Below, one piece after another: positions 14,571-19,734 of a stretch of 20,000 nucleotides of DNA (within the stretch, counting starts at the first letter, position 1; the number at the start of each line of letters is the position of its first letter). A model generated the notes under the pieces. That model made no database searches, was not told the DNA's origin, and saw only the letters and a list, made by a program, of their open reading frames with translations. This DNA comes from an uncultured virus (IMG/VR IMGVR_UViG_3300042465_007039) (lineage: Duplodnaviria; Heunggongvirae; Uroviricota; Caudoviricetes): the IMG/VR virus record IMGVR_UViG_3300042465_007039, positions 51,948-71,947 of that record; one strand, given 5' to 3'. Both the position numbers and the translations under genes were made by a program.

Positions 14571-15743
14571 GTGAAAAATTACTGGCCCGCCTACCAAGAC
14601 ATTGAGCTGGCCAGCACAGCCTTGAAGTGGGGCTACTACATACCCGGACTAATCGGTCAATACAGACCTGACATTGAACTGATTGAAATCAGACTGGATT
14701 TTAAAAAAAACACTGATTGTTACGGCAATGTCAAACACCATCATCGGGACGTGGACTACAGTGACTTGTCTGGCCAAATTGAATCGGCGCTTGCGTCAGG
14801 CAAAAAAGTTGGACTGTTGGTAGAAGATGAGCATGTGTACTATGAAAAAAATCATCAGTTAACTGCAATAGTGAATCGCTACCAAGACCATGCGGTGTAT
14901 TGGCTAACACAATACGATTCAAAAAGAATCAAGTTGATATATCAGGATCAGCACGGACTTGAATGCAAAATACTAGAATTGCCTTGGTTGATCTTGAATG
15001 AATGCTTGGTGTACAACTACATCAAACGCGTTCGGATACCTACTATAATTTTGTCACGGCGACATTATCAAGATCCCACTAGTAATTTTTTCACCGTGAC
15101 CGGCAAGTACGAACCTTTTAGGAAGCAACTGCTGGAAGCCCTGGTAGATCATGGTCTAGATCAATACGGACTGCTTACTGTGCCCAAAGATTCGCACGAC
15201 TGGTATCACTCGGACAAATATCAAATTGGTCAACAGGTGCAGATCGAATCGCATGCCCCGTATGGCACACCGCCCAGGAGAGATCATGACAAAATGGCTG
15301 CACAATTTTTTGAGAACAATGTGTGGCTCAGCTGCAATACGCAAAACTTTCTTCACCTGGAAAGAACCTACATAAACTATCCTCTGGCCATCATACCCGA
15401 AACTACTATGACCAATTTTTTTGCCACTGAAAAAAGCGTGTGGCCTGCGCTGCTGGGCAAGATGTTTTTGATTCTAGGGCCTGCAGGATGCATGAGCTAC
15501 ATTCAGCGATTCTACGATGTTGACCTGTCACAATTTATGAATCTTGATTTTGATCAAATAGATCCATTGACACATGAACATTTTTCTGAAAAAATAAATT
15601 GTATGTTGAGTCAAAATCGAGATTTTGTTGTTAACGCCAAACAGATACATGCACAGTACCGGGATCAATTTCAAGCAGCGCAAAACACCATTGGACCAAA
15701 CATCTACAAGTTTGTGCTGGCACAATTGGATCTGATTCAATAG
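14571..15743 (+). CDS. hypothetical protein, possibly GT-B glycosyltransferase-like (GT10-like C-terminal motif)
   Basis: 390-aa ORF; IIPET...FFATEKSVWPALLGKMFLILG resembles the E-x-Y/F-x-T-E-K motif of GT10-like proteins. Confidence 0.55.
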   Translation: MKNYWPAYQDIELASTALKWGYYIPGLIGQYRPDIELIEIRLDFKKNTDCYGNVKHHHRDVDYSDLSGQIESALASGKKVGLLVEDEHVYYEKNHQLTAIVNRYQDHAVYWLTQYDSKRIKLIYQDQHGLECKILELPWLILNECLVYNYIKRVRIPTIILSRRHYQDPTSNFFTVTGKYEPFRKQLLEALVDHGLDQYGLLTVPKDSHDWYHSDKYQIGQQVQIESHAPYGTPPRRDHDKMAAQFFENNVWLSCNTQNFLHLERTYINYPLAIIPETTMTNFFATEKSVWPALLGKMFLILGPAGCMSYIQRFYDVDLSQFMNLDFDQIDPLTHEHFSEKINCMLSQNRDFVVNAKQIHAQYRDQFQAAQNTIGPNIYKFVLAQLDLIQ

Positions 15744-15755
15744 ACTCAAACCCAC

Positions 15756-15784
15756 TTGACAGCATACGAGAATAAATATATACT
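15756..15784 (+). promoter_or_regulatory. sigma70 promoter of tmRNA
   Basis: TTGACA-17 bp-TATACT; TAAATA in spacer. Confidence 0.85.
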
Positions 15785-15790
15785 GCAAGT

Positions 15791-16970
15791 TAAGACTGTA
15801 TGAAGTAGATAGAAAAGGATTCTGGACGCGGGTCCTTTTAAGCGGCATCGAAGTGTCGTCTGACATAAATACACTTATGTATTACTATGTCTATCAAATA
15901 ACAAACTTGTTGAACGACAAAATCTATGTCGGGAAACATAAATCTGCCAAACACCCTTCTGAAAACGAATATTACGGCTCTGGGAAACAAATAACAGCCG
16001 CTATTAAAAAATACGGTATAGAAAACTTCAAGAAAGAAGTCTTATACTACTGCTCGTCATTGGAAGAAATGGCAGACAAAGAAGCAGAAGTGGTCACTGA
16101 AGATTTTGTAAAAAGACCCAACACTTACAATATGCACAAAGGTGGTACAGGAGGATGGGATCACTACAACGGTAGCAAAGAACACAGTGCTAATTCACGC
16201 AAAGGCGGCGTAAAAGGCGCAAAACGATTGAACGATTTTATAGCAGAGCAAAAGTTCAACGACACAGAGTGGTGGCAAAATTGGCACAGCAAAGTAGTAG
16301 AATCCAACAGATCTAAAAATAATAATAGCTGGTTGAACATTTCTGAAGATGAAATGCAAAGAAGAAAAAAACAACAGAGTGAAAATGCGGTAGGCAATAA
16401 GAATAGTCAGTATGGCAAGATTTGGATTTCAAATATATTGACAAAAGAAGTAAAACGCATTACAATAAATGATACTATTCCACAAGGATGGGCAAGGGGC
16501 AAGAAAGGCCATGCTCCTACCAAACTTTGGGTAAATAATGGTGTTAAGGAGCATTATATCTTACTTGAAAAACAGCAAGAATATGTCCTTAAAGGTTTTA
16601 GTAGTGGCAGACTTAAATCAAGTATGTCGCGAACGAGTATGGTAGTTTAACGCTTTGATAGAAAGAAGTTCTGGACCCGGCTAGCATTATGCCGGCAGGT
16701 CCACCATAAACATTTTGTAACCATCGAAAGATGAGTCAAATACCATAAGGTTAGAATAAAAACGGCTCTAACTACAAAATGTTTTTGATGGGCTTGAAAA
16801 GATTCGACAGGGCAACAAGTATTGACAAGATCTACTCGGCAATGTAGAAGCCGTTAGGGTTGGAGTATTTCGGCCGTAGACACAAAAAAAGTAAAAGCAA
16901 ACGACTCACAGTTCGCATTGGCTGCTTGAAAAAGCAATCTAGGGTAAGACATACCTCGTAACAGAAACTC
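15791..16970 (+). ncRNA. ssrA: circularly permuted (two-piece) tmRNA, acceptor piece interrupted by an endonuclease gene
   Basis: Acceptor end CAGGTCC-A-CCA (16696-16706) lies upstream of the 5' end GGGCTTG-AAAAGATTCGAC (16790+), giving G3:U70; intervening segment closed by AAACATTTTGTA/TACAAAATGTTT; tag frame ANDSQFALAA* at 16897-16929. Outer ends approximate. Confidence 0.92.
15877..16650 (+). CDS. GIY-YIG (Seg-like) homing endonuclease
   Basis: YVYQITN...KIYVGKH...YYGSG...KYGIENFKKE...E...YN catalytic domain; C-terminal WISN/WVNNG...GW/GF..G repeats; A-rich; ATG 15877 preferred over GTG 15853. Confidence 0.9.
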   Translation: MYYYVYQITNLLNDKIYVGKHKSAKHPSENEYYGSGKQITAAIKKYGIENFKKEVLYYCSSLEEMADKEAEVVTEDFVKRPNTYNMHKGGTGGWDHYNGSKEHSANSRKGGVKGAKRLNDFIAEQKFNDTEWWQNWHSKVVESNRSKNNNSWLNISEDEMQRRKKQQSENAVGNKNSQYGKIWISNILTKEVKRITINDTIPQGWARGKKGHAPTKLWVNNGVKEHYILLEKQQEYVLKGFSSGRLKSSMSRTSMVV

Positions 16971-16996
16971 AGAACCCGCTTTGGCGGGTTTCTTTT
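16971..16996 (+). terminator. intrinsic terminator of tmRNA
   Basis: AACCCGC-TTTG-GCGGGTT then TCTTTT. Confidence 0.85.
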
Positions 16997-17019
16997 AAAT
17001 ACAAAAACAGAATGAGATA

Positions 17020-17709
17020 ATGAACAAACCAATTATGTTCTTGGGAAGCGGCCAGCAAATTACAGAATTTGCAGAGACTTGCGATCTTAATGGGCAAAGT
17101 GTTGCAGGAATCGTCGATAGTGACTACTACGGCAATACCACAGACTATCAGGGCATACCTTATGTTGGTAGAGAAGATGATTTTGATTTTTCTGATGCTG
17201 CTGACAAGTATGATTTTTTCATTGGGTCAACGGCAGTTGCTGGAATGCCTCGCACTATACAACGCCGCAGACAATTTGTCGATCTAGTTGATCAATTGAA
17301 TTTGCCATGTGCAAATATTATTGATCCTCAATGCAGAATCAGTCCCGGGGCCAAGTTAGGCAAAGGAGTATACATTGGATATTCGTCCTGGATTTCTCAC
17401 CAGGTTGTGATTCACGATCACTGTATAATGCATTCATTGGCAGGATTAGGACACGGTTGTGTGATAGGAAAAAATACTACGTTCCAAAGAGCTAGTACTG
17501 CAGGTAGTAACGTGACATTTGGAGAAAATGTTATTGCTTTAATAGGTTCAAGATTTTTAGGATTTCCATCTATGAGCGTAGGAAACAATGCAATTATATA
17601 TCCCGGAATGGTAGTAATGCGAGATGTTGCCGCCGAAGAAATAGTTAAATTCAGTAGTAGAAAAATTTACTCAGGACTTGCGGAACAAGTCCCAACACAA
17701 GAGACTTAG
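17020..17709 (+). CDS. NeuD/PglD-like sugar acetyltransferase (hexapeptide repeat)
   Basis: N-terminal FLGSG Rossmann-like domain, NIIDP, left-handed beta-helix repeats LGKGVYIG/IHDHC/IGKNT/FGENV/VGNNA, catalytic-type GH. Confidence 0.85.
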   Translation: MNKPIMFLGSGQQITEFAETCDLNGQSVAGIVDSDYYGNTTDYQGIPYVGREDDFDFSDAADKYDFFIGSTAVAGMPRTIQRRRQFVDLVDQLNLPCANIIDPQCRISPGAKLGKGVYIGYSSWISHQVVIHDHCIMHSLAGLGHGCVIGKNTTFQRASTAGSNVTFGENVIALIGSRFLGFPSMSVGNNAIIYPGMVVMRDVAAEEIVKFSSRKIYSGLAEQVPTQET

Positions 17710-18855: not shown

Positions 18856-18954
18856 TTGCACCTGGCGTAATGGAAGCGTTACAGGTTAGTATCGAAAGAT
18901 ATACCCGAGAGGCGATGCGGGGGGTGCAGGGTTCGATTCCCTGCGGTGCAATCA
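18856..18954 (+). ncRNA. tRNA-like RNA without canonical anticodon arm
   Basis: TTGCACC/GGTGCAA stem, D-loop-like TAATGGAA, T-arm CAGGG-TTCGATT-CCCTG; middle replaced by GAAA/GAGA tetraloop hairpins; ends TCA. Confidence 0.65.
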
Positions 18955-19276: not shown

Positions 19277-19369
19277 GGCGTTATAGGATGTAACGGGGTG
19301 CGGTTTGCCTCAACCTTGAATGATCTTCAAGGTTTTCTTGCGTGGGTTCGAATCCCACATGATGCCCCA
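19277..19369 (+). ncRNA. tRNA-like RNA with His-type acceptor (G-1:C73)
   Basis: GGCGTTAT/ATGATGCC directly followed by CCA; T-arm GTGGG-TTCGAAT-CCCAC; non-canonical inner hairpins. Confidence 0.65.
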
Positions 19370-19374
19370 AGTTA

Positions 19375-19435
19375 TGCAGTTTTTGTCTGGAGTAATATTC
19401 CTGGACACGGATAAAAACAGAAATGTTCTGCGCCA
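19375..19435 (+). ncRNA. small CCA-ended structured RNA
   Basis: GCAG/CTGC-G-CCA, TTTTGTCTG/CGGATAAAA stem, ACA-GAAA-TGT hairpin. Confidence 0.45.
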
Positions 19436-19441
19436 AGTTAT

Positions 19442-19511
19442 GCCCTGGACTGTGTTGCGAGTCAGATTTGAAGCTGAACGTAGACAGGTTCAATTCCTGT
19501 TAGGGGCGCCA
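19442..19511 (+). ncRNA. degenerate tRNA or tRNA-like RNA (anticodon ambiguous, TTG/TGA)
   Basis: GCCCT/GGGGC-G-CCA, T-arm ACAGG-TTCAATT-CCTGT, TCAG-ATTTGAAG-CTGA arm with 8-nt loop, no canonical D-loop. Confidence 0.6.
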
Positions 19512-19514
19512 AGT

Positions 19515-19734
19515 TTTGTTAGAGTGTTAGCAAGAGAAAGTCACGCTGTCTAGGTTTCTTCGAAGAACCAAAGCAGTAGAAGGTGATGGGTTCGACACCC
19601 ACCCTGCGGGGAACTGCAGGGGTCCATTGAGGCGACTAAACTGGACCGGTATCCCAAGTAACTTACCGACTCCCGCTCGAGCTTGTTAATTCGGGTGAAT
19701 GGCAGCAATAACGTGGTGCTGCTACTTTAACAAA
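19515..19734 (+). ncRNA. unidentified multibranch structured RNA (about 220 nt)
   Basis: Closing stem TTTGTTAGAGT/ACTTTAACAAA, TTAGCAAG/CTTGTTAA, and at least five internal hairpins. Confidence 0.65.

Follow-up and report, generated by a model that had tools for sequence, protein, structure and literature searches.

How can a selfish endonuclease gene settle at the gene of a structured RNA and leave that RNA intact? This question is raised by a 20,000-nt stretch of DNA (the window), positions 51,948 to 71,947 of IMG/VR record IMGVR_UViG_3300042465_007039, from an uncultured virus of the Caudoviricetes. Here, a gene for a GIY-YIG homing endonuclease stands between a truncated front piece of a transfer-messenger RNA (tmRNA) gene and a second copy of such a piece. 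An earlier note on this DNA described the nuclease as lying inside an intronless tmRNA gene and the second copy as a new 3′ end for the interrupted RNA. Comparison with related viral loci points to another explanation: a resident two-piece tmRNA gene was probably overwritten by a mobile cassette that joins a SegB-like nuclease gene to the tmRNA front half of a different lineage.

Anatomy of the locus

The window constitutes the final 20 kb of a 72-kb viral record with a completeness of ~20% (CheckV). The locus forms a single unit on the + strand (15756 to 16991), comprised of a promoter, a 43-nt stump, a 43-nt leader, the GIY-YIG open reading frame (ORF), a permuted tmRNA gene, and a terminator. 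Its features are as follows.

15756 to 15784, + strand: resident (old) tmRNA promoter of the sigma-70 type, TTGACA-17-TATACT, 11 of 12 matches, predicted start near 15791
15791 to 15833, + strand: relic (stump) of the resident acceptor piece, containing the 5′ strands of both pairing helices and T-stem plus one base of the T-loop, its first
15813 to 15839, + strand: junction hairpin, 10 pairs including 2 G.U, 7-nt loop, 3′ arm ending in TTTT
15834 to 15876, + strand: left end and 5′ untranslated region of the putatively imported nuclease unit, with the boxes TCGAAGTGTCGT (15848 to 15859) and CATAAATA (15864 to 15871)
15877 to 16650, + strand: SegB-like GIY-YIG homing endonuclease gene, 257 amino acids plus stop
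16438 to 16466, + strand: sigma-70-like promoter within the ORF, candidate for the new tmRNA, TTGACA-17-TACAAT, 11 of 12 matches
16641 to 16706, + strand: new complete acceptor piece, supported by the RF04321 match and covariation
16707 to 16789, + strand: intervening spacer of the permuted gene, 83 nt
16790 to 16965, + strand: coding piece, tag frame 16897 to 16929
16837 to 16870, + strand: right-hand recombination junction zone by alignment, in the invariant pseudoknot 1 (PK1) sequence common to all lineages
16972 to 16991, + strand: intrinsic terminator that closes the tmRNA unit, with an 8-pair stem and a T run after it

The segment from 15791 onward, which the earlier note had taken to be derived from tmRNA, is by its homologies a true tmRNA stump. 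The same promoter and leader precede uninterrupted tmRNAs of relatives, and the best library match is the nuclease-free locus L104 with 97.9% identity over 47 nt (L-numbers denote the viral-contig loci compared with the window). A search of viral contigs with the 16-mer at the stump end yielded 44 loci. The leader continues uninterrupted into the T-loop, T-stem, acceptor strand, and CCA in 30 of these; 4 are interrupted (2 belong to the same phage, and L013 and L020 carry another GIY-YIG gene), and the remaining 10 are other tmRNA types or unrelated sequences. Contigs from the same lakes likewise match the window to 15832/15833 and then run into an intact T-arm and CCA (run X19, 3 contigs), which is the read-through predicted for relatives free of the ORF. 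Intact nuclease-free alleles coexist in the same lakes and samples, and metagenome coverage of the stump and coding piece exceeds that of the nuclease ORF several-fold. The break lies at the T-loop as described earlier; its exact end is one base into the loop, at 15833 instead of 15832.

The ORF starts with the ATG at 15877, which is kept in homologues, and not with an upstream GTG. The predicted protein matches Pfam family PF19835 (SegE_GIY-YIG) with 29.2 bits against a cutoff of 25 bits and the PHROGs homing endonuclease family phrog_314 with an E value of 1.7e-37. In a tblastn search, T4 segB is the best of five T4 places, with 37.8% identity over residues 1 to 210 (82% of the length; E value of 8e-34). 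Tyr17 and Gly19 of the YVG motif are present; catalytically dead SegB variants in the literature are Y17A/G19A. The nuclease is a SegB homologue by these matches, a free-standing Seg-type GIY-YIG enzyme and predicted homing endonuclease. This anatomy agrees with the view of a homing-type gene that has the truncated old acceptor piece on one side and a new one on the other.

The copy downstream of the ORF is more than the 3′ end that it had been taken for. Rfam model RF04321 is matched from 16641, inside the ORF, to 16929 with 84.9 bits (threshold, 47 bits) over model positions 1 to 213, a match also found in the scan of the whole record, and thus a whole acceptor piece of another lineage is present. 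Since ARAGORN reports seven tRNAs and no tmRNA in the window, Rfam is needed to find this gene. The acceptor piece begins with the 5′ strand of helix H1 (GGTAG, 16641 to 16645) within the last codons of the ORF, followed by a T-arm (CCGGC, 16677 to 16681; 9-nt loop, 16682 to 16690; GCCGG, 16691 to 16695), the acceptor 3′ strand (16696 to 16702), and ACCA (16703 to 16706). The coding piece provides the acceptor 5′ strand GGGCTTG (16790 to 16796), the H1 3′ strand CTACT (16832 to 16836), and a tag frame (16897 to 16929) encoding ANDSQFALAA followed by a stop codon. The acceptor stem GGGCTTG/CAGGTCC forms 7 of 7 pairs, the third being G.U (G3.U70 is kept). The T-loop is not canonical, as the 9-nt loop TAGCATTAT is carried on a 5-bp stem and the usual TTCRA is missing. 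The same odd loop recurs in L048, L052, and L114 and is found on a compensated stem in L125; noncanonical loops are frequent in this group of phages.

The family of ~20 distinct lake-phage loci with this nuclease fused to a tmRNA shows the same organization. A full permuted tmRNA starts a few bases before the nuclease stop codon in 19 of the 20 loci scanned, the contig of L057 running out, and the ORF overlaps the acceptor piece in all 19 loci scorable for both; the earlier note had suggested that the acceptor piece may double as an mRNA. The acceptor stem forms 7 of 7 pairs in 19 of 20 loci, with seven sequence variants that each have G.U at pair 3; in the twentieth, L076, it pairs as well when read by eye. 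H1 forms all five pairs in 13 of 14 loci, with one mismatch in L061, and its 5′ strand coincides with the codons of the final Ile/Met-Val-Val of the nuclease. The H1 variants AGTAG/CTACT (4 loci), GGTAG/CTACT (2 loci, including the window), and TGTAG/CTACA (7 loci) show covariation with the coding piece across relatives, with A-T, G.T, and T-A versions. By these comparisons, the second copy is a complete permuted (two-piece) tmRNA and the predicted working partner of the nuclease gene.

The locus is not an assembly artifact, as three IMG/VR contigs are identical over 9.2 kb and contigs of other runs span 15771 to 16504 and 15793 to 16903 with zero differences, bridging stump, nuclease, and tmRNA. 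At least half of the sampled words are present in 18 of 24 listed lake-water runs, and the identical locus is found in many lake samples dated 2020 to 2024. No RNA run is listed for the locus, and two presumed RNA runs contain 0.04 of the sampled words. A blastn search against 50,697 phage records found no close cultured relative, the only matches being short ones to the nuclease with 69 to 74% identity.

Home context and lineage mosaic

Homologues of the nuclease were found at 40 loci, 24 of them at 53 to 100% identity, plus a remnant. A search with the leader of the linked tmRNA gave 62 loci, of which 34 are tmRNAs. Among these, 16 have an intact nuclease, 6 retain only its last 10 to 60 codons as 3′ remnants, and 12 have no nuclease sequence. 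With intact, remnant, and empty forms, all stages of the homing endonuclease life cycle are present. The presence/absence polymorphism expected for a homing nuclease is seen both between related genomes and within the same lakes.

The comparison of L257 with L218 and L256 illustrates the home context. Between the upstream terminator hairpin and the tmRNA start, a 793-nt nuclease unit of L257 takes the place of a 37-nt promoter, and the end of the nuclease ORF reads into the native tmRNA leader. The tmRNAs are 98.6 to 100% identical, and the upstream flanks are 73 to 76% identical. Of the 12 nuclease-free loci of the linked lineage, 7 were inspected, and 5 of these have their own TTGAC-N17-TATAAT promoter. 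In its home context, the nuclease gene is by this comparison free-standing: it lies upstream of the tmRNA, in place of the promoter, and leaves no stump. The description of a nuclease inside a tmRNA gene does not hold there.

The stump and the linked copy of the window come from different lineages and are only loosely similar. The linked copy belongs to a GTAG/CTAC lineage; tmRNAs of the stump lineage begin with GACTGT and have the partner ACAGTC in the coding piece. The coding piece of the window is itself mosaic. In the alignment, it resembles the nuclease-linked loci L055 and L064 up to ~16845 and the nuclease-free locus L023 from ~16870, including the unusual end of the tag. Such a mosaic fits a conversion tract ending between 16837 and 16870, as judged by comparison and not from a cross, and the imported tract looks like it extends from 15834 to about 16837 to 16870.

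An upstream relic of some nuclease-free lineage is found in 15 of 23 nuclease-bearing loci. The seven strongest relics cover 28 to 51 nt with 93 to 100% identity to nuclease-free tmRNAs of several lineages, and six of them terminate inside the T-arm or where it begins. The relics of the window and L055 end after the stem plus 1 base, that of L056 after the stem plus 3 bases, those of L074 and L020 after the stem plus 5 bases, and that of L064 within the stem; the relic of L058 ends before the T-arm. Nucleases that are ~85% identical (window, L055, and L056) stand behind relics of different lineages. L068 shows the junction sequence of L074 behind another relic, a pattern that would be expected if the donor contributes the junction and the recipient retains the distal part of its own stump. 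Taken by sequence, the window looks like the invasion of another tmRNA lineage.

Proposed mechanism and competing explanations

The known SegB site comprises 27 bp with the T-stem-loop motif GGTTCRANTCC, and cleavage occurs near the CCA end (PMC2330249). By analogy, during coinfection the nuclease would cut the tmRNA gene of a naive phage in or near the T-arm DNA. Repair would then copy a donor tract that starts with the nuclease unit, continues through the linked acceptor piece and the spacer, takes in one-third of the coding piece, its first, and ends in the invariant PK1 sequence. The acceptor, H1, and H3 helices would each be transferred with both strands, so that the tmRNA would stay functional and splicing would not be needed. 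The recipient promoter and the first 43 nt of the acceptor piece would persist as the stump, from which the cassette would be transcribed and which would offer homology on the left side in later homing events. Once in place, the arrangement of stump, nuclease, and tmRNA would have homology at both ends for ordinary homing. The two-piece tmRNA would be made from a longer transcript started at the old promoter or at the one within the ORF. The cleavage site, the immunity of the linked allele, the repair route, the choice of promoter, and the 5′ processing are inferred.

Several observations weigh against this overwriting by a cassette. The upstream gene and promoter (15300 to 15790) matched only copies of the same phage, so no near-isogenic nuclease-free relative was found, and the invasion is deduced from the comparison of lineages instead of an empty site in this genome. 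As to a possible immunity of the linked allele, the relic T-arm differs from the linked T-arm in seven of seven loci with a relic reaching the T-loop, and the linked arms there have no perfect SegB motif. The linked T-arm of the window lacks it; a perfect GGTTCRANTCC is nevertheless present in two nuclease-linked alleles (L071 and L217). Among 68 nuclease-free loci, a PK1-anchored sample of viral contigs picked independently of the T-arm, just 16 have the perfect motif (11 of 37 unique sequences), and 42 have GGCAG-type loops. The relic of L055 derives from such a GGCAG-type allele with a noncanonical loop. Immunity through loss of the SegB T-loop motif would be consistent within loci and is not statistically supported. 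The tRNA region of the window itself contains six perfect copies of GGTTCRANTCC, so specificity must involve more than the T-loop, including tmRNA-specific flanks. Finally, T4 SegB cuts near the CCA end and the relics end 5 to 20 nt earlier, and therefore resection or another kind of junction would be required.

At least a dozen T-arm stem-loop variants, a striking diversity, occur in closely related phage tmRNAs, and the same stem can bear a tRNA-like TTCGACT loop or a GGCAGTG loop.

Three of the alternative explanations concern the fate of the RNA. An unconventional or cryptic intron, excised with the insert so that the old acceptor piece is regenerated, would have a precedent in the group I introns hosted by bacterial tmRNA T-loops (PMC11915505). 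A permissive Rfam scan of 15700 to 17050 (E value of up to 10) found no match to Intron_gpI or any other group I, group II, or further intron model, only tmRNA models and three chance matches to small RNAs. Just 43 nt precede the ORF, and the insert is followed by a second complete 5′ half in place of the missing 3′ half of the T-loop. An intron is therefore extremely improbable. The absence of an intron, which the earlier note had claimed, is borne out, and together with the complete second copy it agrees with the proposal that the tmRNA is maintained by a supplied replacement, independently of splicing. That the insertion destroyed the tmRNA and left a nonfunctional downstream copy is very unlikely. 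The odd 9-nt loop without TTCRA, the missing ARAGORN call, and a Rfam score below the 105 to 125 bits of relatives would fit such decay; against it, every helix is paired, G3.U70 and the tag frame are intact, the odd loop recurs at other loci, once with a compensated stem, and the identical locus persists in lake samples over several years. Equally unlikely is the idea that RNA from the stump gives helices to a three-piece tmRNA, through pairing of GTATG (15798 to 15802) with CATAC (16950 to 16954) and of AGTAGAT (15804 to 15810) with ATCTACT (16830 to 16836), to which the downstream copy would add only the T-arm and the acceptor end. These complementarities lie exactly where the earlier note placed them, AGTAGAT/ATCTACT provides seven perfect pairs compared with five (one G.U) for GGTAG/CTACT, and L056 shares the 7-mer match. 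The motif AGTAGA, however, is a native feature of tmRNAs that lack ATCTACT in the coding piece, and it is missing from the relics of L055, L058, L064, L074, and L075. GTATG/CATAC shows no covariation (four pairs in L033 and none in L009), GTATG also occurs in the downstream copy (16637 to 16641), and home-context loci have no relic at all. Because the downstream copy is complete, matching the whole Rfam model, and its H1 covaries with the coding piece, a three-piece tmRNA is unnecessary.

Two further alternatives concern the origin or use of the stump. Tentatively, the stump and the hairpin behind it could be a selected regulatory element, with attenuation or termination protecting the toxic nuclease gene against the strong tmRNA promoter; it might also prevent competition between the orphan strand and the new acceptor piece. 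This possibility, which is compatible with an invading cassette, has a modest chance of being right. The hairpin at 15813 to 15839 would sequester the helix strand of the relic and the orphan T-stem strand, as the earlier note described for its masking role. L056 and L074 have hairpins at the same place, the arms of the window and L056 differing from those of L074 and yet being complementary (z-score for L074, −3.2), and T runs follow in the window, L056, L074, L075, and L065. On the other side, the window hairpin (−10.3 kcal/mol) lies within chance expectation, with a z-score of −1.69 and 13 of 200 shuffled sequences equally stable, and a terminator scan did not call it. In 72-nt segments of 20 loci, z-scores range from +1.4 to −4.3 and are mostly insignificant, and most nuclease-bearing loci have no such hairpin. 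L068 carries the 3′ arm of L074 without a complementary 5′ arm, as if the junction were merely inherited. The junction hairpin may act as a weak insulator or terminator, unless it arose by chance. Duplication by recombination between promoter-and-leader repeats without a nuclease cut, with a circular or tandem cassette integrated at the leader, is less likely still. Such shuffling of promoter-stem-loop cassettes is described for T4-type phages. Unrelated ORFs stand between a promoter-plus-leader fragment and a full tmRNA in L052 and L048, the breakpoint being before the T-arm in both, and spacer and leader regions are general insertion hot spots. Relics adjacent to the nuclease, by contrast, end in or at the T-arm, the region recognized by SegB-type enzymes; relic and linked copy belong to loosely similar, different lineages; and the imported tract reaches into the coding piece, as predicted for co-conversion from a break.

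The proposed stem of AAGCG (15840 to 15844) with CGCTT (16651 to 16655), which would loop out the ORF, is rejected: it comprises 5 bp over ~800 nt, has no energetic or convincing comparative support, and is weak in some homologous loci and absent from L074.

At the locus, no promoter lies directly upstream of 16641. Candidates for transcription of the linked tmRNA are read-through from 15756 to 15784 and the intra-ORF site at 16438 to 16466. The latter is found in 15 of 19 family loci, with alternatives at −87 in L065, L066, L067, and L075 and none found in L061 or L076, and its conservation is ambiguous because the site overlaps a conserved peptide. Whichever candidate is used, the acceptor piece needs 5′ trimming or has a long leader. 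In nuclease-free relatives, the RNA begins a few bases ahead of H1. In the window, H1 has its 5′ strand, starting at 16641, ahead of the nuclease stop codon (16648 to 16650), and the same is true for 19 of 19 related loci scored. Processing that frees a native-like 5′ end of the acceptor piece would therefore sever the nuclease mRNA ahead of the stop codon and yield a nonstop message. If so, trans-translation would mark the nuclease protein for degradation, possibly through its own fused tmRNA. A self-limiting circuit of this kind, in which the hitchhiking tmRNA throttles a toxic nuclease, is a speculative and rather improbable idea. In a related reading, the T-arm diversity of these phage tmRNAs may reflect an arms race with the nuclease.

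The boxes TCGAAGTGTCGT and CATAAATA are kept ahead of the nuclease ATG throughout the nuclease family. CATAAATA occurs once in the window. In nearly all family members it lies 5 to 6 nt 5′ of the ATG, and it is also found within the promoter spacer of native linked-lineage tmRNAs (L218 and L256). As a T4-type late promoter it was rejected: the T4 late consensus, TATAAATA, occurs 0 times in the window, and the box is shared with the native tmRNA promoter spacers.

Relation to known systems and further observations

The arrangement is a variant of free-standing, intronless homing. T4 SegB is homologous and also free-standing, lies beside genes with a tRNA-type T-arm, and is coinherited with neighboring RNA genes; its site includes a T-stem-loop motif, and the relics in the window family end in or at the T-arm (PMC2330249). 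The partners of T4 SegB are tRNAs, whereas the partner in the window family is a two-piece tmRNA. In contrast to T4 SegB, the last codons and the stop codon of the window ORF lie inside the RNA gene, the nuclease replaces the promoter of the RNA gene at home and leaves a promoter-bearing stump upon invasion, and the window nuclease has ~47 extra C-terminal residues; its cleavage is only predicted. In T6, SegB sits with tRNA genes and drives their duplication (PMC13096335). Duplicated RNA gene segments beside a Seg gene are common to both cases. The T6 junctions lie at short homologies, and identical units are amplified in tandem under defense pressure (PMC13096335), whereas the window shows a single partial duplicate with two copies of different lineages. 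That paper does not mention tmRNA.

Known forms of tmRNA genes are standard, intron containing (some introns carrying LAGLIDADG nucleases), and permuted (PMC11915505). The group I introns of tmRNA T-loops share with the window an endonuclease-bearing mobile element at the T-loop (PMC11915505). Unlike these introns, the window has no ribozyme or splicing, a GIY-YIG instead of a LAGLIDADG enzyme, replacement instead of excision, and a permuted phage gene. Integration into tmRNA or tRNA genes is also known for genomic islands and prophages (PMC11915505). The resemblance to such islands consists of a target RNA gene kept intact through an incoming substitute segment, with the displaced fragment at the other border; the window differs in its homing nuclease, in the displacement of a 5′ part, and in a replacement that is a diverged front half. 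Islands of this type use an integrase and replace the 3′ end of the RNA gene by a near-identical copy. Two-piece tmRNAs of Melnitz-type aquatic myophages are also permuted phage genes behind an early-type promoter, and the accessible part of their description reports no nuclease, relic, or duplicated leader (PMC9004378). No literature tying a Seg-type nuclease to tmRNA was found among the matches inspected; subscription journals were outside the search, and the supplementary tables of PMC11915505 (79 phage tmRNAs) and PMC13096335 (segB neighborhoods) may list such loci.

If the cassette explanation is correct, the locus would represent a third way for a selfish endonuclease to inhabit a structured RNA gene without killing it, besides self-splicing introns and integrase-borne replacement ends. 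The nuclease would bring along a coadapted RNA front half, so that every helix arrives with both strands. The association of SegB with tRNA genes would be extended to tmRNA, and duplicated tmRNA leaders and odd T-arms, which confuse tmRNA annotation, would be accounted for. With ~20 or more natural variants, the family offers a system for homing-nuclease jumps between diverged targets, and it hints at a possible role of nuclease pressure in the T-arm diversity of tmRNAs from abundant lake phages.

Other loci show further insertions around tmRNA genes. In L052 (798 to 1500) and L048 (100 to 1540), a segment of promoter and leader breaks off ahead of the T-arm, an unrelated ORF comes next, and a full tmRNA that has the odd T-arm of the window stands behind it; a C-terminal remnant of the nuclease lies upstream in L052, and a GIY-YIG gene lies on the opposite strand in L048. 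L013 and L020 (1493 to 2188 in L020) carry a second, shorter GIY-YIG type, inserted in the same tmRNA lineage behind base 5 of the T-loop, with an ORF end that overlaps the promoter (−62) and the start of a complete second tmRNA with a different acceptor stem. In L167 (2024 to 2659), a distant GIY-YIG homologue with 33% identity lies downstream of the coding piece and not upstream of the acceptor piece. The spacer between acceptor and coding pieces is enlarged to 140 to 430 nt in L010, L025, L032, L055, and L095 and seems to contain small ORFs that begin directly downstream of the CCA and follow an AAGGA-like ribosome-binding site; protein genes would then lie within the excised part of the tmRNA precursor.

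In the window, four T-arm-like elements (18857 to 18952, 19341 to 19375, 19482 to 19515, and 19585 to 19600) show perfect or near-perfect GGTTCRANTCC and a trailing CCAAGTT, as do the neighboring tRNAs. They receive no ARAGORN or Rfam call and are perhaps unusual tRNAs or tRNA relics. The element at 18857 to 18952 has a 7-bp acceptor-like stem around ~96 nt.

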